Positions 10,233 to 44,589 are shown, counted from the stretch's first letter. The stretch: 64,000 nucleotides of DNA from an uncultured Candidatus Saccharibacteria bacterium (GCA_964361095.1 CAYHZA010000007.1:3010-67009), one strand, 5' to 3'. Program-made: numbers and translations. Notes: generated by a model not told the origin, from the letters alone.

Positions 10233-10997
10233 ATGGATACCAATAAATTAAAAACCTATTTTTGGGGTGTGCTGGACTTGGTCCTCGCGGCTTTTTTTAT
10301 CAATCTCGTTTTCTTCGTGATGCCGACGGTGCAAAAACTTGGCGATTCATTCCAACCCGTGCGCACCATAAGCGTTTCGGCGGAGGGGAAGGCTTTTGTC
10401 ATACCGGATATCGCGGAGACTTCCTTTTCGGTTGTTTCGCGCGGACAGGACCCTGCCCAGTTGGCGGATATGAACAACAAAAAGATTACGTCGGCCATTA
10501 ATTTCGTGAAATCCCAAGGGATTGACGCGAAAGACATAAAAACTGCCGGTTATTATCTCTCGCCCGACTACCAATATACGCCGGAGACCCAGCGGAGCAT
10601 TATTACGGGCTATACCCTGACGCAGACCGTCTCGGTCCGCATACATGATTTCTCTAAAATAGCAGCTATCCTCGGCGGTCTTCCTCCGCTTGGGATTAAC
10701 CAGATTGGAGGCCTCAACTTTACCGTTGATGAACCCGAAAAGTTTTTGGCAGAAGCCCGGGCTGATGCTTTTAAAAAAGCCCGTGCCAAAGCGATATCTC
10801 TGGTCGCGCAGAACGGAGTTCGGCTTGGAAAAGTAATCAATATCGGCGAATCGCAAGGCGGGGGACCGATGCCTTATTACGCGAAGAGTCTTGACGGACG
10901 CGGCGGTGCCGCTGCTCCGGAAATCGCTCTTCCGACCATCGAACCCGGCCAGCAGGAGCTGAATCTCCAGGTTTCGGTAACGTACGCGATAGAATAG
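10233..10997 (+). CDS. SIMPL domain protein (DUF541, BP26/OMP28-like)
   Basis: N-terminal TM/signal; length and pattern (LNFTVDEPEK..., AKA..., final LQVSVTYAIE) typical of the SIMPL family. Confidence 0.6.
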   Translation: MDTNKLKTYFWGVLDLVLAAFFINLVFFVMPTVQKLGDSFQPVRTISVSAEGKAFVIPDIAETSFSVVSRGQDPAQLADMNNKKITSAINFVKSQGIDAKDIKTAGYYLSPDYQYTPETQRSIITGYTLTQTVSVRIHDFSKIAAILGGLPPLGINQIGGLNFTVDEPEKFLAEARADAFKKARAKAISLVAQNGVRLGKVINIGESQGGGPMPYYAKSLDGRGGAAAPEIALPTIEPGQQELNLQVSVTYAIE

Positions 10998-11044
10998 GTG
11001 TCGATTCCGGCCGCGTTAGAAGCTAATTTTTTTGGGGGGGCTTG

Positions 11045-11193
11045 CCCCGTAACATTACTGGGGTTCGCCTCATTCAACCTGTCGATGCAAGCCAATGTAA
11101 ACCACGCTATTTTTCCTTATGCGTCTAGTGGCAATAAAACAAAGGAACATATTGAACGAGGCGGCAGGTTGACGCCCCAGTAATGTTACGGGG
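11045..11193. repeat. 19-bp inverted repeats CCCCGTAACATTACTGGGG / CCCCAGTAATGTTACGGGG flanking about 110 bp
   Basis: Exact reverse complements at 11045-11063 and 11175-11193; the right arm abuts TTGACT. Confidence 0.7.
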
Positions 11194-11223
11194 TTGACTT
11201 TTTCCTCTTACTTCTGCTATACT
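11194..11223 (+). promoter_or_regulatory. sigma-70-like promoter TTGACT-N18-TGcTATACT
   Basis: -35 TTGACT 11194-11199; extended -10 TGcTATACT 11215-11223. Confidence 0.5.
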
Positions 11224-11229
11224 ACTCCC

Positions 11230-11326
11230 GAATGAGTGTGAATAGTCTTTAGAGATTGCATCAATAAAGACTGTCCCATACTTCCTGTTTGTCCCAACCC
11301 CCGCTTCGGCGGGGTTTTGGGTTTTT
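11230..11326 (+). ncRNA. candidate small RNA of about 95 nt with an internal hairpin and an intrinsic terminator
   Basis: Predicted TSS about 11230 from the promoter above; hairpin agtcttta...taaagact; terminator ccccgcttcggcgggg + TTTTGGGTTTTT; no ORF. Confidence 0.35.
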
Positions 11327-11348
11327 AGGGGAGTCGCCTCTATCTTTT

Positions 11349-11377
11349 TTGGCAAAAACCCCGTATCCATTTATAAT
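11349..11377 (+). promoter_or_regulatory. near-consensus sigma-70 promoter TTGGCA-N17-TATAAT
   Basis: -35 at 11349-11354, perfect -10 TATAAT at 11372-11377; transcription runs into the repeat region towards murB. Confidence 0.55.
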
Positions 11378-11396
11378 GTTGATACGTTCGGCACAT

Positions 11397-11866
11397 GTCC
11401 ATTTTGGTGGCCGTGAGGAGAGCACTTGTTGGTACATTCATAAAAGTCCATATTAGTGGTCACAGGGAGAGCACTCATTAACAAGGGTTCATCGTGGTGG
11501 TTGTGAGGAGAGCACTCATTCAAAACAAACAGAATTGGAGGTCACCACTCGTAACCACCACGATGGATCGATGGAAAACAGAATTGTTCCCGATTTGTCC
11601 CCGATCCGTCAGTTGACGGAGAGGGGATACAAATTGTCATGCCTACGGCAGATCTTCCGAAGGGATGACAATCCCGCATACACTGAGCTTGTCGAAGTGC
11701 TCTGCGGGAGAGGTCACCACCTGTGACCACTAATATGGATTAATGAAGAACAGAACTGTTCCTCAACCGTCCCGCTACGGCGGGACGAACGGGATCGCAC
11801 AAATCTAACCTCAAGCTTCGCTTCTCGGAGATTTGAGTGAGACGTCACTCCTCACGGCCACCAAAG
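11397..11866 (+). repeat. three tandem roughly 34-nt units (core GTGAGGAGAGCACT) followed by their inverted partners in nested order
   Basis: Units at 11397-11430, 11446-11479, 11487-11520; reverse-complement partners at 11553-11565, 11720-11739, 11848-11864; extra local hairpins. Confidence 0.6.
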
Positions 11867-25280: not shown

Positions 25281-26576
25281 ATGAGCAATCTTAAAAAGAT
25301 AAAAAATTTTGAGGATCTTGCGCGGACTCCGCTTCGCAAGCTTGCGTTTCAAATGATAGAAGCGGGAATTGCCGCGATTGACACAAAAACGTCGGTGCGC
25401 TCGGCCGTACGTTTTGAAGGAGATGTTCTTATGGTTAACGATAAGAAGATTCGGATCCATGAAGGTGGGCGCTTGTTCGTCGTAGGAGTCGGGAAGTGCT
25501 CGCTTGAAGCCGCCGCGGCGCTTGAAGAAATTTTAGGAGATCGCATCACGGCGGGTATTGTTGTGGATGTGCACGATGGGGAGCTTAAAAAAATAAAAGC
25601 GTATGCAGGTGATCATCCTTTTCCGTCACAAAGGAACGTTGACGTTACGAAAGCTATGATCGATCTTCTCCGCGATGCTCGCGAAGATGACGTGGTTATC
25701 GCGATTGTTTCGGGAGGCGGATCAACACTTCTCTGTCAGCCCCAGAATATGACCTGCCAGGACGAAGCGTTTATTGTCGAGCACCTTTTCAGAGAAGGGG
25801 CTACCATACAAAAGATTAATACCTTGCGGAAGCACCTCTCTCTTGCCCGGGGAGGTTATTTGGCGAAATATGCTTATCCCGCAACCGTTGTCTCCCTTAT
25901 CTTTTCGGATGTGCCCGGTAATGATATTCGAGCCGTTGCTTCGGGTCCGACAGTGCGTGATCTTACGACGATTGCCGATGCGAAAAAAATCGCTGAAGAA
26001 TTCGGCGTTCGACAAGTAAGCCATTTGAGCGGATTTGATCTCATAGAGACACCGAAAGAAGAAAAATATTTTTCGAAGGTACACAATTTTCTTATTGTTT
26101 CGAATATCGTGGCGCTTCAGGCTATGGCGGCTATTGCGGAGCAGAACGGATTTAATCCCGTTATCTGCGGTAGCTGTATCTTTGGAGAAGCACGTGTTAT
26201 CGGCGAAGGCATCGTAAAGCAACTTGGCACGTTTAGCGGCAAAACAGCTCTTCTTTATGGCGGAGAAACTACGGTTACGATGAAGGGAAACGGTAAAGGA
26301 GGACGGAATCAGGAGTTGGCGCTTTCCGCTCTGCGATTTATAAAGAATAATCAACTTGTCGTCTCTTTCGCTTCGGATGGTAAAGACAATTCCGAATTCG
26401 CGGGCGCTTTGTGTGATATAATAACTAAAGAGAATGCCGCCTTACGCGGGTTCGATCCCGAAGAATATCTCGCAAGAAACGACGCGTATCCTTTCTTTCG
26501 CGAAGTAGGTGATTACTTTTTAACGGGAGATACCGGATCGAATGTTTCCGATCTTATTATTGCGCTTAAGGAATAA
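25281..26576 (+). CDS. glycerate kinase (MOFRL family)
   Basis: About 430 aa; VVGVGKCSLEAAAALE and IVSGGGSTLL patterns of MOFRL/DUF4147 glycerate 2-kinases. Confidence 0.6.
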   Translation: MSNLKKIKNFEDLARTPLRKLAFQMIEAGIAAIDTKTSVRSAVRFEGDVLMVNDKKIRIHEGGRLFVVGVGKCSLEAAAALEEILGDRITAGIVVDVHDGELKKIKAYAGDHPFPSQRNVDVTKAMIDLLRDAREDDVVIAIVSGGGSTLLCQPQNMTCQDEAFIVEHLFREGATIQKINTLRKHLSLARGGYLAKYAYPATVVSLIFSDVPGNDIRAVASGPTVRDLTTIADAKKIAEEFGVRQVSHLSGFDLIETPKEEKYFSKVHNFLIVSNIVALQAMAAIAEQNGFNPVICGSCIFGEARVIGEGIVKQLGTFSGKTALLYGGETTVTMKGNGKGGRNQELALSALRFIKNNQLVVSFASDGKDNSEFAGALCDIITKENAALRGFDPEEYLARNDAYPFFREVGDYFLTGDTGSNVSDLIIALKE

Positions 26577-26587
26577 AAATTACAACT

Positions 26588-28981
26588 ATGAAATTTACTA
26601 AACTGTTTGAAGAAGTCGGTATTAAAGATGTCGGTCTTGTCGGAGGAAAAAATGCCTCGCTCGGAGAGATGATACGCACCTTGAAATCCAAAGGTGTGCC
26701 GGTGCCTTCTGGTTTTATCGTGACCGCGGAGGCTTATTTTTATTTTCTTAAAGCAACCGGACTCGATAAATTTATCCGAACAACACTCAAAGATTTAGAT
26801 ACAAAAAATTTAAAAGAATTGCATCGTTGCGGTTCGGCGATCCGAAACGCGATCATACGCACGGAATTTCCGAAAGATTTACAACAAGAAATTATAATGG
26901 GTTACCGCGGGCTCGAAAAACGCTACGGGAAAAACGCGGATACGGCGGTGCGTTCATCGGCGACTGCCGAAGATTTGCCGGGTGCCTCTTTCGCCGGTGA
27001 GCAGGAAAGTTATCTTGGTATTCGCGGCGAGCGTGAAATTCTCCGCGCCGTCCGCGCCACCATGGCTTCGCTTTTTACCGACCGCGCCATTTCCTATCGC
27101 GAGGATCGCGGTTTTGATCATTTTAGAGTAGGACTTTCGGCGGGTGTTCAAAAAATGGTGCGTTCGGACAAGGCGTGTTCGGGGGTGATGTTCAGCTTGG
27201 ACACCGAATCCGGCTTCCCGAACGTTGTTCTTATCAACGGTTCGTGGGGTTTAGGTGAAATGATCGTGAAGGGCGAGGTGACGCCTGATGAGTTTTTTGT
27301 CTGGAAAGAAGGATTGAAGCGGAACGTTTCGCATCCCATTATCGAAAAGAAATTGGGCGTGAAGTTTCACAAGATGATTTACCATCACGGCAAGGCGATT
27401 CAGCAGACAAAAATCATATCTACTACGGTTACCGAGCGTGACTCATTCGTGCTGACCGACAAAGAGATTGCAAAGCTCGCTCGTTGGGGGGTCATTATTG
27501 AAAAGCACTATACCAACCACTACAAGAAGTGGATGCCGATGGATATGGAGTGGGCGAAAGACGGCGTAACGGGTGAGCTTTTTATCGTGCAGGCGCGTCC
27601 AGAGACGATTCACGCCGGGCGTGATTTTTCGAAATTGAAAGAATATATTTCTCTTGAGAAGCGGATTCCAATAGTGGCGGGGGCATCCGTGGGATCAAAA
27701 ATCGCAACAGGCAAGGCGCGGGTGATTTTAGACGCGAAACACATCGGTGAATTTAAGAAAGGCGAAGTTTTGGTCACTGATATGACCGATCCGGATTGGG
27801 AACCGATCATGAAAATCGCATCCGCAATCGTAACCGATAAGGGTGGCCGCACTTCGCATGCCGCAATCGTTTCTCGCGAGCTTGGAATTCCCGCGGTAGT
27901 GGGCACGGAAAAAGCAACGAAGCTCATAAAAACCGGTGACTTGATTACTGTGGATACGACCGGTAGCGCCGGAAGTATCTATAAAGGATTCCTTAAATTT
28001 AAAGTTGTTGAACATGACCTAAAAAAAATCCCGCACCCCAAGACGAAAGTGATGGTAAATGTGGCGATTCCCGATAGCGCGTTCGAACATTCGTTTTTGC
28101 CGAATCAAGGCGTGGGTCTTGCCCGCGAAGAATTTATCATTGCGTCGAAAATGGGAGTGCATCCGATGGCGCTTTTAAACATGAAAAATGTCAATCCTGC
28201 CGTGCGGCGCGCGATAGAGATGAAAATGCGCGGCTGGAAAGATCCCAAGCAGTACTACATAGACAATCTTGCGTTCGGGGTCGCGAAGATCGGCGCGGCG
28301 TTTTATCCGAAGCCCGTGATCGTGCGCTTCTCGGACTTCAAAACAAACGAGTACCGCACGCTTTTGGGCGGTGAGCAATATGAACCGCAGGAAGAAAATC
28401 CGATGCTTGGCTGGCGTGGCGCTTCGCGGTATTACGATCCGAAGTTCATCGAAGCGTTCGCGCTTGAATGCAAAGCCGTCAAAAAAGTTCGCGAGGATAT
28501 GGGACTCGTGAACGTAATTCCGATGATTCCGTTCTGCCGCACCGTGGAAGAGGCAAAGAAAGTAATTGCGGTTATGGAGAAAAACGGTTTGAGTCGAAAG
28601 AAAGACAGAACGCTCAAGGTTTACGTGATGTGTGAGATCCCTTCAAATGTTATTCTGGCGGACGAATTCCTAAATATTTTCGATGGAATGTCCATTGGAT
28701 CCAATGATTTAACACAACTTACGCTGGGGCTTGATCGGGATTCGGGAATTGTAACCCGCATCGCGAACGAGAATAACCCGGCGGTTAAAAAACTCATCTC
28801 CGATGTGATCAAAAAATGCCGCGCGAAGAAAAAATACATCGGTATCTGCGGCCAGGGGCCCTCGGATTATCCCGAATTCGCCGAGTTTTTAGTGAAAGAG
28901 GGGATAGAGAGCATTTCGCTGAATCCCGATACGGTGGTGAAGACGACTATGGCGATTGCGCGAGTGGAGAAGGGGAAATAG
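26588..28981 (+). CDS. ppsA: phosphoenolpyruvate synthase (pyruvate, water dikinase)
   Basis: N-terminal ATP-grasp DVGLVGGKNASLGEM; phosphohistidine motif GGRTSHAAIVSRELGIPAVVG; C-terminal PEP-utilizing TIM barrel; 797 aa. Confidence 0.9.
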   Translation: MKFTKLFEEVGIKDVGLVGGKNASLGEMIRTLKSKGVPVPSGFIVTAEAYFYFLKATGLDKFIRTTLKDLDTKNLKELHRCGSAIRNAIIRTEFPKDLQQEIIMGYRGLEKRYGKNADTAVRSSATAEDLPGASFAGEQESYLGIRGEREILRAVRATMASLFTDRAISYREDRGFDHFRVGLSAGVQKMVRSDKACSGVMFSLDTESGFPNVVLINGSWGLGEMIVKGEVTPDEFFVWKEGLKRNVSHPIIEKKLGVKFHKMIYHHGKAIQQTKIISTTVTERDSFVLTDKEIAKLARWGVIIEKHYTNHYKKWMPMDMEWAKDGVTGELFIVQARPETIHAGRDFSKLKEYISLEKRIPIVAGASVGSKIATGKARVILDAKHIGEFKKGEVLVTDMTDPDWEPIMKIASAIVTDKGGRTSHAAIVSRELGIPAVVGTEKATKLIKTGDLITVDTTGSAGSIYKGFLKFKVVEHDLKKIPHPKTKVMVNVAIPDSAFEHSFLPNQGVGLAREEFIIASKMGVHPMALLNMKNVNPAVRRAIEMKMRGWKDPKQYYIDNLAFGVAKIGAAFYPKPVIVRFSDFKTNEYRTLLGGEQYEPQEENPMLGWRGASRYYDPKFIEAFALECKAVKKVREDMGLVNVIPMIPFCRTVEEAKKVIAVMEKNGLSRKKDRTLKVYVMCEIPSNVILADEFLNIFDGMSIGSNDLTQLTLGLDRDSGIVTRIANENNPAVKKLISDVIKKCRAKKKYIGICGQGPSDYPEFAEFLVKEGIESISLNPDTVVKTTMAIARVEKGK
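28911..28960 (+). repeat. ppsA 3'-terminal segment, first copy of an imperfect direct repeat
   Basis: catttcgctgaatcccgatacggtggtgaagacgactatggcgattgcg; second copy at 29701-29750 is about 85% identical. Confidence 0.7.
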
Positions 28982-29030
28982 CCAGTAGAGGAACGCATGA
29001 TGGATCTGCGGTCTTTCAATTCTCGCGGAG

Positions 29031-29342
29031 TTGTGCCATACTGTAAGCATGACTGACGTTGCAGAAATTCAAAAAGTTATCAGGCCGCTTCTTGAGCGCA
29101 ATGATGTTGTTTTTGCGGGGGTTTTCGGTTCGTTTGCGCGCGGAGAAGCGAATGAGGCGAGTGACATCGACCTCTTGGTTCGGTTCCGAAGTCCCAAAAG
29201 CCTTCTTGAGATTGTGCGATTAGAACGCGAACTCACTGCGCTTACCGGACGGAAGGTGGAAGTGGTAACTGAAAAATTTCTCCATCCCTACATTGCGGGA
29301 TCGGTGCGTCGCGATCTCCATCCTCTCTATGGAAAAGGATAA
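29031..29342 (+). CDS. MNT-type nucleotidyltransferase (antitoxin of a HepT/MNT module)
   Basis: GSFARGEANEASDIDLLV minimal nucleotidyltransferase motif. Confidence 0.8.
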   Translation: MCHTVSMTDVAEIQKVIRPLLERNDVVFAGVFGSFARGEANEASDIDLLVRFRSPKSLLEIVRLERELTALTGRKVEVVTEKFLHPYIAGSVRRDLHPLYGKG

Positions 29343-29661
29343 GGTATACGTTCGGCACATACTTGATTCCATCTCTATAATAGAGGGCTTTATCGCGGGA
29401 ATAACGTACGAAAAGTTTGCGGAAAATAAGTTGCTTCAAAATGGCGTTATTCGAGAACTCGAGGTAATCGGTGAGGCATCAAAGAAGCTTTCCGACGAAT
29501 TTAAGGAGTCACTTCCGGGAATCGAATGGAAAAGCATCGCGGGAATGCGCGATAAGCTCATTCATGACTACTTTAGCGTTGATTTAGAAGCGGTGTGGAA
29601 AACCGCCACAAGCGACCTCCCGCCCCTCAAGGAGATTTTGTCTCAAAGATCTGATGGTTAG
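29329..29661 (+). CDS. HepT-like toxin (DUF86, HEPN)
   Basis: RDKLIHDY, an Rx4-6H HEPN motif; 14-nt overlap with the MNT gene. Confidence 0.8.
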   Translation: MEKDKVYVRHILDSISIIEGFIAGITYEKFAENKLLQNGVIRELEVIGEASKKLSDEFKESLPGIEWKSIAGMRDKLIHDYFSVDLEAVWKTATSDLPPLKEILSQRSDG

Positions 29662-29700
29662 TTTTTCACTTCTCTTTTGGATTGTTGCGGGGGGACAATG

Positions 29701-29750
29701 ATATTTCTTTGAATCCCGATACAGTGGTGAAGACGATCATGATGCTTTCG
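29701..29750 (+). repeat. second, diverged copy of the ppsA 3'-terminal segment (right boundary of the TA insertion)
   Basis: tatttctttgaatcccgatacagtggtgaagacgatcatgatgctttcg; would encode ISLNPDTVVKTIMMLSRK*. Confidence 0.7.
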
Positions 29751-29784
29751 AGAAAATGAAAATGTGGACATAATATAAGTTAAC

Positions 29785-30117
29785 ATGTCTAAATCACTAG
29801 AGGATCTTAAGGGAAAAGAGCTTTTGAGATTTGAAAGCGCGAAAGAGAAGGAATCTACAAAATTTGACAATATAGTTTTTGTAGCTGCGACAGGAACTTT
29901 TGTTCTCTCAATTAACTATATAGTTGGCATCAAGACCAACTATCTGCATTACCATTCGTTTCTGGTTCTTGCGTGGATTTTTCTTCTGACGGCGATTATA
30001 GTGCACGCAGATGGGTATCGTGAATCTGTAATTTACCACCAGGACTTTATTGACAAGTTAAATAAATGGAATGCCAATCATTATCAAGCATTATCAAGAT
30101 CCTTTCCCGGCTACTGA
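29785..30117 (+). CDS. hypothetical membrane protein
   Basis: 110-aa ORF with two TM helices. Confidence 0.4.
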   Translation: MSKSLEDLKGKELLRFESAKEKESTKFDNIVFVAATGTFVLSINYIVGIKTNYLHYHSFLVLAWIFLLTAIIVHADGYRESVIYHQDFIDKLNKWNANHYQALSRSFPGY

Positions 30118-30127
30118 CACACATAAA

Positions 30128-30250
30128 ATGAAGAAAATAAAAAGGATGAGTGACTGGTCTTTTTACTTACTTATACTGGGGCTACTTTTTTTAACCGCAT
30201 TTGCGGCGATTAATTTTCTCATTCAAAATAATACCAATTTTTATCAGTGA
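30128..30250 (+). CDS. possible 40-aa single-TM peptide
   Basis: MKKIKRMSDWSFYLLILGLLFLTAFAAINFLIQNNTNFYQ; its stop overlaps the next start (ATGA). Confidence 0.2.
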   Translation: MKKIKRMSDWSFYLLILGLLFLTAFAAINFLIQNNTNFYQ

Positions 30251-31254
30251 TGAAACTCGCATTTTTTGAAATCGAGGGATGGGAGGAAAAAATTATCCAC
30301 GAAGCGTTTTCTGATGCGGATGTTTTCGTGACAAAAGATAAGGTAACAGCGCTCTGCTTGCCCGACACGCGAGATTTTGAGATTCTTTCGGTATTCGTGG
30401 ACTCGAGAGTTGATAAGGCGGTTTTGGATTGCTTCCCGAACCTGAAGTTCATCGCCGCGCGCTCCACCGGCTATGATCATATAGATGTCGCCGAGTGCAA
30501 GGCGCGTGGAATCTCCATTGCCTATGTGCCCGGCTATGGGGATAATACGGTTGCGGAGTTTGCCTTCGGCCTCATTCTCGCGCTTACGAGGAAAATTTAT
30601 CAGGGCATTGATCAGATAAAAGAAATAGGTTCGTTTTCACTTGCGGGGCTCCGTGGCACGGATCTTAAGGGAAAAACCATCGGCATTGTCGGTACGGGAA
30701 GGATCGGAAGGGAGATGGCGAAGATCGCGCGCGGTTTTTCGATGAAGATCGTCGGGTATGACCCGTTTCCTGATGAGAATTTTGCCCGTGAATCAGGTCT
30801 TGAATATCTAAGCTTGGAGGGTCTTCTGGGTATCGCCGATATTATTACGCTACACTGTCCCTATAATCAAAATACGCACCATTTAATACATAACGGCAAT
30901 ATTCATCTTGTAAAAAAGGGCGCGTATTTGGTGAACACCGCACGCGGCGCGATCGTGGAAACTGAAGCGATTGTCGGGGCGCTCAAAGAGGGCATTCTTG
31001 CGGGCTACGGCGCCGACGTACTCGAAGAGGAGGGGGAAACCAAAGACGAGCTTACCATTTTGGCGCTTGGCCACCCGCATGAAGAGGAGCTCAAGACCAT
31101 GCTCCGGAACCATATTTTGATGAAAATGCCCAATGTCTTGATCACGCCGCACAATGCTTTTAACTCGCAGGAAGCGCTTGAACGGATTTTGCATACGACG
31201 ATTGAGAATATCCGTGGCTTTATGGAAGGAAAACCTGTGAATCTTGTTCAATGA
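30250..31254 (+). CDS. D-isomer-specific 2-hydroxyacid dehydrogenase (D-lactate/phosphoglycerate dehydrogenase family)
   Basis: NAD Rossmann motif GIVGTGRIGREMAK; catalytic-domain pattern. Confidence 0.8.
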   Translation: MKLAFFEIEGWEEKIIHEAFSDADVFVTKDKVTALCLPDTRDFEILSVFVDSRVDKAVLDCFPNLKFIAARSTGYDHIDVAECKARGISIAYVPGYGDNTVAEFAFGLILALTRKIYQGIDQIKEIGSFSLAGLRGTDLKGKTIGIVGTGRIGREMAKIARGFSMKIVGYDPFPDENFARESGLEYLSLEGLLGIADIITLHCPYNQNTHHLIHNGNIHLVKKGAYLVNTARGAIVETEAIVGALKEGILAGYGADVLEEEGETKDELTILALGHPHEEELKTMLRNHILMKMPNVLITPHNAFNSQEALERILHTTIENIRGFMEGKPVNLVQ

Positions 31255-32462
31255 GAGTTAAGGATATTACTGTTCGAGAAATTTTCGATTCACGAAGTGG
31301 GCCGACGATTGAGGTGCGCGGCAGGAATCCATTGATTTCGGCGTCGGTGCCTTCGGGGAAAAGCAGAGGAAACCGCGAGGCAAAGGTTTTTTCGTTTCGA
31401 GAAGCTTTTCTGGGCATAAAAACGATCGTAAAAAATCTCGGTGGGAGGAATTTCCAATCGGTACGCGACTTGGACGAGGCACTTCTTCGTTTGGATGGTA
31501 CGGCGAACAAATCGAAACTTGGCGGCAACGTAACTCTTGCGGTTTCGATGTTCGGCGCGCGGATGCTTGCCGCGGAGCGTGGCAAGGAAGTGTGGCAAGT
31601 ATTGCGCGAGGAATTCTTTAAAGGCGCGAAAGACGTTCCGCCGCTTATTTTCTCGAATCTTATAAACGGAGGGGCGCACGCGGCAAATAATCTTGATATT
31701 CAGGAGTATATGGTTGTTGTTCACCCCGTTAGAACGAGCTCTAATGGGGTAAAATCCGGGAAATCGGTTGCGGAAGATATACAGGCGCTCATCCGTTTTT
31801 ATCGGGAGCTCGGAGATCTTTTTAAAAAAACGCGGAAGATACAAAATATTCCAATCGGCGATGAGGGCGGGTATTCCCTGAATTTCAAAAGCAACTTCGA
31901 ACCAATCACGGTCTTGGAAAAGCTCGTTAAAAAATTTCATCTCGAAAGCCGTTTTGGTTTGGCGCTCGACGTTGCGGCGAGCGGATTTTTAAAAAATGGA
32001 GAATATTATTTTAGCGGTAAACGGTTTTCTTCCGAACAGCTCGCCGCGGAATATCTGTGTTATTTCAAGAAGTCAAAATTTCTTTTCTCCGTTGAGGATC
32101 CCTTTGCGGAACGTGACGCGCAGGGATTCGCTCTTTTGCGGGAGAAATTGCCGGATGCGTGGGTGGTGGGAGATGATTTGACGACTACGAATCCAACAAC
32201 GATTCAAAAATACGCGCACGAGGGAGTAATAAATGCCGTGATCATTAAGCCGAATCAGATCGGAACGATAAGCGAGGCTTGTAAGGCTATTGCGGTTGCG
32301 AAAAAACATGGATTAAAGACCATTGTTTCGCACCGGTCGGGCGAAACGGAAGATTCTTTTATTACCCATCTTGCAAAAGCCGGAGGCGCGGATGGAGTAA
32401 AAATTGGCGCGCCGATCCGGGAACGGATCTCGAAATTTAACGAACTTGCGCGAATTTACTAA
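31251..32462 (+). CDS. eno: enolase
   Basis: ITVREIFDSRSGPTIEV N-terminus; SHRSGETEDSFITHLAKA; C-terminal IGAPIRERISKFNELARI. Confidence 0.85.
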   Translation: MRVKDITVREIFDSRSGPTIEVRGRNPLISASVPSGKSRGNREAKVFSFREAFLGIKTIVKNLGGRNFQSVRDLDEALLRLDGTANKSKLGGNVTLAVSMFGARMLAAERGKEVWQVLREEFFKGAKDVPPLIFSNLINGGAHAANNLDIQEYMVVVHPVRTSSNGVKSGKSVAEDIQALIRFYRELGDLFKKTRKIQNIPIGDEGGYSLNFKSNFEPITVLEKLVKKFHLESRFGLALDVAASGFLKNGEYYFSGKRFSSEQLAAEYLCYFKKSKFLFSVEDPFAERDAQGFALLREKLPDAWVVGDDLTTTNPTTIQKYAHEGVINAVIIKPNQIGTISEACKAIAVAKKHGLKTIVSHRSGETEDSFITHLAKAGGADGVKIGAPIRERISKFNELARIY

Positions 32463-43053: not shown

Positions 43054-44589
43054 TTAGGGAGTGGTCGTGAATGACTGTTGGCTCGAGAGCGCGGTATTGC
43101 CCGAAGCGTCTTGGGACTCGAGAACGAAGAAATACGTACTTAAAGCGGTAAGACCGCTTAATCCCAATGAGTGGCCCGTAACAAGCGTGGCGTTCAATGT
43201 CGTGCTTGCTGTTCCGAGATTCACCGGATTTACGAGTCCGTAATACATTTTGCTCGTCGCGAGTTCATCGGTTGTCCAATTGATCGTTGCCGAAGTGGAA
43301 CTGACGTTTGCGAGCGTGATCCCGCTCATGACCGGAGAAGTTGTATCCGGCAAAGCGGTAGTGGTGAGAGTTTGATCCGTCGATATTCCCATGTTTCCCG
43401 TGGCGTCTTTTGATTTAACGCGGAAGTGGTACGTGGTGCTCGGCATAAGGCCGGTCAGTGCTTGCGAATGGCTTGTCACGAGCGTGATATTCAGCGTTGT
43501 GGCAAGTCCATAGGCGGTTGACGTGCCGTACTCGATTTGCGTATCAGCCGTTTCGTCGGTTATCCAGCTTACGAGAGCCGATGTCGAGCTGGTATTCGTA
43601 ACCGTAATACTCGAGATAACAGGAGCGGTTGTGTCTGAAATATTGCCGGTTGTGAGGGCTTGATTCGTTGATACGGCAAGATTTCCCGCCGCATCCCGCG
43701 ATCTCACTTGGAAGTGATATGTTGTGTTGGACATAAGGCCGGTAAGTGTTTGGGTGTGGTTTGTTACGAGGGCCGAATTCAACACGGTGCTTAATCCGTA
43801 GGCGGTGCTTGTGCCGTAACTTATTGTGGTATCGGCCGCTTCATTCGTAACCCAGCTTACGATTGCTGAAGTTGTCGCAACTTGAGTTGTAATGCTCGAG
43901 ATAACAGGAGCGGTTGTGTCCGGCGTAGTCGTTGCATGATCGATTTTTTTATCGATGCCGGGCGGAAGAATTTGGCAGATCGGCACGATAGGACGCTCGC
44001 CGCCATGTTTACGGAGCCAACCTGGTGCGATGAGATGTCCGGGTGGTACGATGGCGCACGGCCTCCGGTCATTATCATCGTCGTCATCTTTTTCTTTAGA
44101 TTTGCGATTCTTCACACTGCCGTCTTCGTTAAGACGAATTGGTTTTTCAAAAGCGAGCGGATGTCTTTCGCCCTCTTTATTAAGGAGCACGAGTGTTTTG
44201 GGACCGACATTACCGACTGTTTCAAGGCCATTCCGCTTCTGAAAACGGATTACGGCTTTTGCCGTCGCTTTTCCGTAGAAACCGGTAATGAGGCCTTCCG
44301 GATAAAGTTCCGAATCGGCGGCAAGTATCGCCTGAAGGGTTTTCACGGCGTCGCCGCGATCTCCTTGTTTTAAAGTTTTAAGGAAACTTGAAACGGTACT
44401 TTGGCGTTCTACGACTACCTTATTTAATTGCGCTTGTAAGGCTTGAATCTGTTCCGTCAGTTTTTTTATGGTTTCAAGTTGAGTTTGAATGCTTGTGGTT
44501 CCGGCTGTTTGCGCGCCCGTGTTGAACGGCATCGTAAACACTCCGAGAACGAGCATTCCCATTATGAATGCCGGTAAAAATTTTTTCAT
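43054..44589 (-). CDS. secreted protein: signal peptide, coiled coil, peptidoglycan-binding domain, three tandem Fn3-like repeats
   Basis: GDRGDAVKTLQAILAA...YGKATAKAVIRFQKRNGL (PG_binding_1-like); three roughly 90-aa repeats ...SSIT..N.SSTSA...W.TDE.A.T...YG.STAYGL... Confidence 0.65.
   Translation of the reverse strand: MKKFLPAFIMGMLVLGVFTMPFNTGAQTAGTTSIQTQLETIKKLTEQIQALQAQLNKVVVERQSTVSSFLKTLKQGDRGDAVKTLQAILAADSELYPEGLITGFYGKATAKAVIRFQKRNGLETVGNVGPKTLVLLNKEGERHPLAFEKPIRLNEDGSVKNRKSKEKDDDDDNDRRPCAIVPPGHLIAPGWLRKHGGERPIVPICQILPPGIDKKIDHATTTPDTTAPVISSITTQVATTSAIVSWVTNEAADTTISYGTSTAYGLSTVLNSALVTNHTQTLTGLMSNTTYHFQVRSRDAAGNLAVSTNQALTTGNISDTTAPVISSITVTNTSSTSALVSWITDETADTQIEYGTSTAYGLATTLNITLVTSHSQALTGLMPSTTYHFRVKSKDATGNMGISTDQTLTTTALPDTTSPVMSGITLANVSSTSATINWTTDELATSKMYYGLVNPVNLGTASTTLNATLVTGHSLGLSGLTALSTYFFVLESQDASGNTALSSQQSFTTTP

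Follow-up and report, generated by a model that had tools for sequence, protein, structure and literature searches.

How does a toxin-antitoxin (TA) gene pair come to lie between two genes of a metabolic cluster, with a copy of the upstream gene's end on either side of it? This question is raised by a 64-kb stretch of DNA (the window, that is, the whole stretch analysed here). Its source contig was obtained from groundwater at Hainich (metagenomes ENA ERZ1292643/ERZ1292639; runs ERR3858113 and ERR3858115) and bears the label Patescibacteria (candidate phyla radiation, CPR). The window carries a co-directional cluster of genes for glycerate kinase (GK), phosphoenolpyruvate synthase (ppsA), MntA, HepT, an open reading frame (ORF) of 110 aa, D-2-hydroxyacid dehydrogenase (HADH) and enolase, and the 3' end of ppsA is found a second time downstream of the mntA/hepT pair. 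We found that the ppsA-tail duplication is real, and that the TA cassette has truly been inserted between ppsA and the dehydrogenase gene of this conserved glycolytic cluster. The architecture is that of an insertion with long target duplication. As to the way of entry, we favor host recombination on incoming DNA and not an integrase or transposase, and assign this explanation as a whole a probability of roughly 0.55.

The duplicated ppsA end and the empty site

A repeat search detected a 51-nt direct repeat (28913-28963 and 29703-29753) with 80% identity at a spacing of 790 nt, and within it a 27-nt core (28920-28946 and 29710-29736) that is identical at 26 of 27 positions. Gapped local alignment widens the homology to a segment of about 81 nt (28900-28980 versus 29691-29772, 60/80 identical), in which 8 of 11 positions match at the 5' edge and 31 of 34 in a 34-nt core; the 3' part, which contains a 2-nt insertion, has 21 matches in 34. 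A preliminary description of this DNA had claimed a duplicated ppsA tail of about 45 nt, the two copies of which bracket only the MNT and HepT genes. The alignment and the shuffles described below bear out the duplication, and the bracketing is also as described; the extent, however, is about 81 nt.

The 27-nt core has no third occurrence anywhere in the window, and in none of 100 dinucleotide shuffles was it found twice. The local alignment score of the repeat is 33, compared with a shuffle maximum of 14-16, and among 2,988 pseudo-cassettes placed at random in about 150 unrelated loci, which served as an empirical null, just 0.13% scored 33 or more. In other ppsA orthologues only 19-23 of the 27 core positions match, suggesting that conservation of the SLNPDTVVKT peptide and its codons alone cannot account for the match of the downstream copy. 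In addition, the sequence of the locus is the same in assemblies from independent samples (L081-L084), and a further contig (L167) has four mismatches, none of them within the repeat copies; this agreement indicates that the repeat is not an assembly artefact. Chance similarity or misassembly might be suspected because the repeat is short and one of its arms codes for a conserved peptide, but these results, together with a homologous structure in a diverged relative (L166, see below), effectively refute it. No tail duplicate was found at the other ppsA loci, about 150 of which were checked; the one marginal match among them (L074) is low-complexity A-rich sequence. Gapped alignment revealed no third copy of the tail 3' of the ORF at 29785.

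The upstream copy is the functional end of ppsA, and the downstream copy is a displaced, decaying relic without function. The relic reads ...ISLNPDTVVKTIMMLSRK*, its premature stop being due to the 2-nt insertion, and it has neither an Rfam match nor a stable RNA fold (z = -0.03). The preliminary description was right in assigning the intact end to ppsA itself and in regarding the downstream copy as displaced; its alternative that the latter is foreign does not hold, because both tails are of the type native to the clade, '...SLNPDTVV[KR]TT[VI]AIAKKEK', which is present in all relatives at 75-83% identity. The relic peptide IMMLSRK* resembles the ppsA tails of distant relatives (L004, L062), but on gapped DNA alignment it is the native tail in a shifted frame. 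Sliding-window comparison of ppsA with 118 homologues showed no recombinant 3' segment, the relatives being too equidistant for an informative signal.

Evidence for insertion comes from the relatives of the window. Among 5.8 billion sequences, the three closest full-length PpsA proteins are 82-83% identical at the aa level, and the empty sites available thus belong to other species, not to conspecific strains. In all three (L190/L191, L192 and L193) the gene order is GK-ppsA-HADH-enolase with a single ppsA tail, HADH lying at +4, +28 and -4 nt, respectively, from the ppsA stop codon, and in two of them the upstream P-type ATPase is the same as that of the window. In more distant genomes (L009, L089, L094, L103, L116 and L090), HADH likewise follows ppsA with no gene between them and a gap of about 23-210 nt. 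The distance from ppsA to HADH in the window is 1,265 nt; since the gap in the closest relatives is only -4 to +28 nt, this DNA must have been inserted. The empty site proposed earlier is therefore found in all close relatives, but it is the dehydrogenase gene at 30247, and not the gene at 29785, that follows ppsA there.

The inserted DNA consists of two parts, namely the TA cassette with its repeat and an AT-rich stretch with the 110-aa ORF. The GC content of the former is 46-50%, the same as that of the flanks, while the latter (29785-30250) has 35-39% GC versus about 48% around it and also contains an overlapping 59-aa ORF. The ORF at 29785 has no homologue but itself among 5.8 billion proteins, gives no donor context, and is absent from all of the relatives. 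It lies outside the 790-nt duplication unit, and L166 has a different ORF at the same position, suggesting turnover of the DNA on the right-hand side of the relic. The ORF at 29785 is probably a separate insertion.

HepT has only two close relatives, one a variant with 99% identity that comes from the same aquifer, the other a protein with 86% identity encoded by L166 (a contig of 1,076 nt obtained from a different sample). L166 carries, in this order, a ppsA tail (...SISLNPDTVVKTIMAIARKEKEK*), mntA, hepT, and a second ppsA-like tail (TSLNLDMVVKSIMATARQEKIKK*). The ppsA 3' end, mntA and hepT of L166 are 88-91% identical to those of the window at the nucleotide level, with differences at 25 of 114 fourfold-degenerate sites, and the identity drops to about 55-60% right after the hepT stop codon. 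The second tail of L166 spans 57 nt and is about 72% identical to the first one, uniformly and with no identity core. The relics of the two genomes are identical at 47 of 89 positions, and each relic matches the functional copies at 52-56 of 89; the derived states CAATG and TCTTT are common to both relics and occur in neither functional copy. The divergence between the relics is about the same as that of other non-coding spacer (~59%), indicating that the relic drifts like ordinary non-coding DNA. As judged from these sequences, a single duplication shortly before the split of the window and L166 lineages, followed by independent decay, would fit the data. The same layout in L166, with a decayed tail of its own, places the insertion before that split. 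Compared with the window, HepT and MntA of L166 show 17/110 and 7/97 aa changes, respectively, and hepT codon 86 (L166:826-828) is an in-frame TGA where the window has TTA (Leu). These features are consistent with possible decay of hepT, or of the whole cassette, in L166, a contig that is short and probably of low coverage.

Two short contigs, L084 (window 28852-30292) and L167 (window 28847-30199), have both ends just beyond the inserted region, and the independent assemblies L082 and L083 both begin at window position 28385. Such contig breaks around the insert could be due to co-existing strain variants, maybe including an empty allele, or to low coverage (3x in the case of L167).

The MntA/HepT cassette and its surroundings

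The cassette occupies about 710 nt between the repeats (0.71 kb), of which 67 nt at the left and 29 nt at the right are non-coding margins. In the cassette, mntA precedes hepT with a 14-nt overlap (29329-29342). A TTG at 29031 had been taken as the start of the MNT gene, but the ATG at 29049 is the most likely one. In the type VII system, MntA AMPylates the tyrosine of the RX4HXY motif and thereby silences the HepT RNase (Yao et al. 2020, PMC7641770). According to the definitions of the toxin motif RX4HXY and the antitoxin motif GSX10DXD (PMC7641770), a regular-expression search identified the former as RDKLIHDY in HepT and the latter as GSFARGEANEASDID in MntA. Like the described HepT/MntA pairs (PMC7641770), the pair combines PF01934 with PF01909, has mntA upstream of and overlapping hepT, and possesses both motifs, and no difference in sequence features was observed. 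Judged by these features, the pair is a Class I HepT/MntA type VII TA system in one intact copy, with predicted toxicity and AMPylation.

The spacer between ppsA and mntA (28982-29048) is unevenly conserved: its last ~30 nt are identical to those of L166 at 28 of 31 positions, and its first 41 nt at about 59%. The conserved block of ~30 nt 5' of mntA may represent a putative promoter/operator of the cassette itself, as its conservation suggests. A promoter scan called no consensus promoter in 28982-29048.

The ORFs and Pfam matches between the repeats include no integrase, transposase or fragment of one, and neither do those of the ~6 kb to the left and to the right, where the neighbours are metabolic or housekeeping genes. 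Among the ORFs between the repeats, only mntA and hepT have family matches. Meanwhile, there is no tRNA gene near the insert, no inverted repeats pair the ends of the cassette, and none of ten small ORFs scanned in the window is another TA gene. The features of the locus are listed in Table 1.

Table 1. Positions of genes and repeat copies at the ppsA locus, counted from the first nucleotide of the window
Feature	Coordinates	Strand	Basis or remark
Glycerate kinase (GK)	25281-26576	+	Co-directional cluster member
ppsA, phosphoenolpyruvate synthase, 797 aa, intact; target gene	26588..28981	+	Pfam PPDK_N, PEP-utilizers, PEP-utilizers_C, E 1e-109 to 3e-29; tail is the clade consensus
Left (functional) copy of the ppsA 3' end, reaching the stop codon; best-conserved 34-nt core 28913-28946	28900..28980	+	Local alignment, repeat search
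Spacer from ppsA stop to mntA start, 67 nt	28982..29048	+	Alignment with L166
mntA, MNT-domain nucleotidyltransferase antitoxin, 97 aa	29049..29342	+	Pfam NTP_transf_2 1.2e-15, Polbeta 2.2e-13; GSX10DXD motif at residue 27
hepT, HEPN/DUF86 RNase toxin, 110 aa	29329..29661	+	Pfam HepT-like 1.8e-28; RX4HXY motif at residue 74
Right (relic) copy of the ppsA 3' end, core 29703-29736	29691..29772	+	Alignment; within no long ORF
Predicted membrane ORF, 110 aa	29785..30117	+	No Pfam match
D-2-hydroxyacid dehydrogenase (HADH); ancestral immediate downstream neighbour of ppsA	30247..31254	+	Pfam; adjacent to ppsA in relatives
Enolase	31251-32462	+	Co-directional cluster member

Two other repeat-bearing regions of the window were observed. 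An 840-nt intergenic region (10997-11837) contains three copies of a 30-nt sequence (11397, 11446 and 11487), a 64-nt pair (11538 and 11710; 75%), and several GC-rich hairpins followed by T-runs, with no Rfam match; it may represent small RNA genes or a repeat-based regulatory region. A 32-nt direct repeat (43604-43635 and 43889-43920; 97%, 285 nt apart) lies inside a minus-strand ORF (43054-44589) and is probably an internal protein repeat.

Routes of entry

The locus has the architecture of an insertion with long target duplication: an autonomous two-gene cassette entered the ppsA-dehydrogenase junction, and the last ~81 nt of ppsA ended up as a direct repeat on both sides. We infer the recombination route from the geometry of the locus only. 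It could be a single-crossover (Campbell-type) integration of a circle bearing homology to the ppsA tail, or a one-sided homologous anchoring in ppsA combined with illegitimate joining at a point 81 nt before the stop codon; either route would produce a target duplication of a long, event-specific length. An insertion would survive only if it restored the ppsA end, and the upstream copy that keeps ppsA intact is probably the reason why this one did. The cassette would then be retained, because loss of MntA would free the HepT RNase.

The preliminary description had suggested looking in other genomes for HepT/MNT pairs that lie between duplicated host 3' ends, and such a survey revealed one clear second case. 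The survey covered independent loci with HepT relatives at 63-69% identity, plus a more distant MNT/HepT pair (L145) among the ppsA loci. In L181:343-3890 and L180:721-5600 (JGI Ga0103680_10024460 and Ga0103682_10000787), a TA-like cassette array lies inside the S10 operon between rplD (L4) and rplW (L23), and consists of a YafQ-type TA (L180 only), MntA/HepT, and DUF5678 with an aspartyl-protease-like gene. A copy of the final 16 nt of rplD, stop codon included, is found in L181 at the 3' boundary of the MntA/HepT cassette, and a further one follows the DUF5678 cassette; each copy of the rplD tail is followed by a near-consensus sigma-70 promoter (TTGACA-17-TATAAT) that precedes a cassette. 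This repeat was not reproduced in any of 200 shuffles, and its local score of 40 was not reached in the 2,988 controls. The rplD and ppsA repeats have nothing in common in sequence, which argues against one sequence-specific recombinase. A perfect 77-nt repeat of the rplD tail in L180 (1656-1831) abuts a run of N and is probably a scaffolding artefact or a mixture of strains. In L196, MntA/HepT lies between a pfkB-family kinase gene and that of fructose-bisphosphate aldolase, and a 19-nt repeat (18/19; 452-470 and 1144-1162) is formed by the end of the kinase gene and a sequence 34 nt after hepT; it was rejected as a third case, because its score of 17 was reached by 5.9% of the controls. No significant flanking repeat was found at four other MntA/HepT loci.

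Several points weigh against the proposed insertion with long target duplication. We saw neither a circular form nor a donor locus, nor an empty allele from the same species. For a circle or anchor to bring in the ppsA tail, ppsA and the TA genes must already have been adjacent somewhere, which is itself unexplained. MntA/HepT loci lacking a significant flanking repeat (L168, L178, L194, L145 and probably L196) have to be accommodated as well. In addition, the relic of the window is a mosaic, matching the functional copy much better in the core than in the 3' part; its private changes number one or two in the 34-nt core, whereas they affect about half of the 3' part. This mosaic needs an extra event, for example a gene conversion in the lineage of the window with the functional copy as donor, which would account for it. 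The identity core of the window could also be read as an att-like core.

That last possibility leads to the interpretation given in the preliminary description, a scar of site-specific integration left by a decayed integrative element. Prophages integrate at tRNA genes, and e14 and phage 21 at icd. By analogy, an attP mimicking the ppsA 3' end would have supplied a replacement terminus, and all but the addictive TA pair would subsequently have been lost. The geometry is the same as that of attL/attR at a gene 3' end, the 34-nt core of the window (31/34) stands between arms of only about 60-67%, and TA genes are typical survivors of element decay. However, the copies in L166 are about 72% identical throughout, without a core; neither an integrase nor a fragment is present, and the non-coding DNA beside the two genes inside the repeats amounts to only 67 nt and 29 nt. 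Two precise deletions would be needed to strip the element down to the TA pair. Moreover, both tails are the clade's own and the GC content equals that of the flanks. Neither HepT nor the repeat core has a match in viral contigs, the cassette was found at no other genomic location, its close HepT relatives are confined to the ppsA locus, and the nearest other HepT proteins are at most 70% identical and lie in unrelated contexts. The decayed-element interpretation is therefore unsupported, the e14/icd model fits the geometry only, and we consider this history unlikely. Other kinds of mobile unit were also rejected: a transposon or insertion sequence by the lack of a transposase domain and of terminal inverted repeats, and by a duplication of 81 nt instead of <15 bp; and an integron cassette by the lack of an imperfect palindrome (attC) after hepT and of a tyrosine recombinase in the neighbourhood.

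The other suggestion of the preliminary description, a TA module that enters gene termini by an unknown route, is closer to what the evidence allows. A further rival explanation is a dedicated, so far unrecognised mobility of TA cassettes, trans-acting or cassette-encoded, that would insert at stop codons with long staggered cuts and build arrays. At two independent Patescibacteria loci (ppsA, and rplD in L181/L180) each cassette finishes with a copy of the end of the gene upstream of it; one of six independent MntA/HepT loci, the window excluded, has a repeat score unmatched in the controls; and reviews regard the mode of TA integration as unknown (PMC7167474). Nevertheless, the repeats differ in length (81 nt versus 16-65 nt) and share no motif, the only proteins encoded by the cassette, MntA and HepT, are not DNA enzymes, the majority of the loci examined have no repeats, and the rplD repeat includes a promoter that was possibly duplicated for other reasons, all of which makes such a mobility quite unlikely. 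Still more improbable, in our opinion, are two unrelated steps, in which replication slippage or unequal crossover first produced a tandem duplication of the ppsA end and a cassette later landed between the copies by chance. Short tandem duplications are known at gene ends, and the sequence does not fix the order of events; but a tail duplicate lacking an insert was found at none of the ~150 other ppsA loci, both genomes with the duplication also carry the cassette, the cassette nearly fills the gap between the copies, and the coupling of repeat and cassette recurs at rplD.

As a readable insertion scar, backed by empty sites, by a decayed orthologous copy in a sister organism and by the rplD parallel, the ppsA locus bears on the open question of how TA systems integrate into chromosomes (PMC7167474), the evidence consisting of two loci and a proposed mechanism. 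A much broader idea, which we regard as doubtful, is that TA cassettes of Patescibacteria (MntA/HepT and others) are self-contained mobile units that enter just after host stop codons, independently of a recombinase and with long target duplication, forming arrays even in the S10 operon. If this were true, long target duplication would be a general entry route for addictive modules, independent of DNA cutting by restriction enzymes, and would explain chromosomal TA integration. Apart from this idea, the ppsA scar also shows that small-genome CPR bacteria tolerate selfish cassettes in core metabolic and ribosomal operons, provided that the end of the upstream gene is regenerated.

Comparison with known systems

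The geometry of e14 at icd is a phage parallel. There, the target gene stays intact through a second copy of its 3' end, and a displaced pseudo-3'-end, the 163-bp pseudo-icd', is left behind on the far side (PMC6379469), as is the relic at ppsA. In contrast to e14, the insert at ppsA measures 0.7 kb and not tens of kb, and it lacks an integrase and other element genes, a foreign tail and, in the sister organism, a conserved identity core.

With respect to the cargo, the locus resembles chromosomal TA systems of Escherichia coli that have entered operons or intergenic hot spots, such as mazEF in relA-mazG, yafNO in dinB-yafP and ccdO157 in folA-apaH (PMC7167474). In both, a TA pair stands between genes that are adjacent in relatives and with which it has no functional link, and decay is seen in some lineages. 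The reviews of the E. coli systems, however, give no long target duplication and describe the integration mechanism as unknown (PMC7167474), whereas a scar is kept at ppsA.

For the recombination step, the pcp-mediated circles of the cfr(C) cassette in Campylobacter coli provide a model. In that case a cassette bounded by direct repeats of a host gene sequence loops out with one repeat and re-enters a homologous site without a recombinase of its own, and both the circles and the transfer have been demonstrated experimentally (PMC10770853). At ppsA the same mechanism is a proposal and no circle was observed; the repeat is 81 nt there, while it is a whole gene in cfr(C).

The best match is found among restriction-modification (R-M) modules. 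Nobusato et al. reportedly described, in 2000, the insertion of R-M gene complexes with long target duplication. In the later survey, direct repeats of 30 to >400 bp flank the R-M modules, and the repeated sequence occurs just once where the site is empty (Furuta, Abe and Kobayashi 2010, PMC2853133; reviewed in PMC3874152). These cases carry no mobility genes and are mostly from naturally competent species, and in some of them the repeat overlaps with the 3' terminus of a neighbouring gene; the mechanism is unknown, and the authors suggested DNA breakage by the module (PMC2853133). As in that survey, the ppsA locus has repeats of >30 bp, an empty site with a single copy and matching flanks to its left and right, and a complete module of <20 kb without mobility genes; the cargo, on the other hand, is a TA pair and not an R-M system. 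By this analogy the ppsA locus would work like the long-target-duplication class, although it falls outside the original definition. Both kinds of locus combine a small module, addictive through post-segregational killing, with long, event-specific direct repeats and no integrase or transposase. They differ in that the repeats at ppsA are old and diverged (75%), not near-identical, and that its empty sites come from other species. Another difference is that HepT is an RNase and not a DNA cutter, and therefore DNA breakage driven by the module cannot apply here. An R-M-like scar around a toxin that is unable to cut DNA points to a mechanism driven by the host and not by the cargo, probably one linked to natural transformation. 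The architecture itself is a known one, and with the ppsA locus it now includes a type VII TA cassette of a CPR bacterium.

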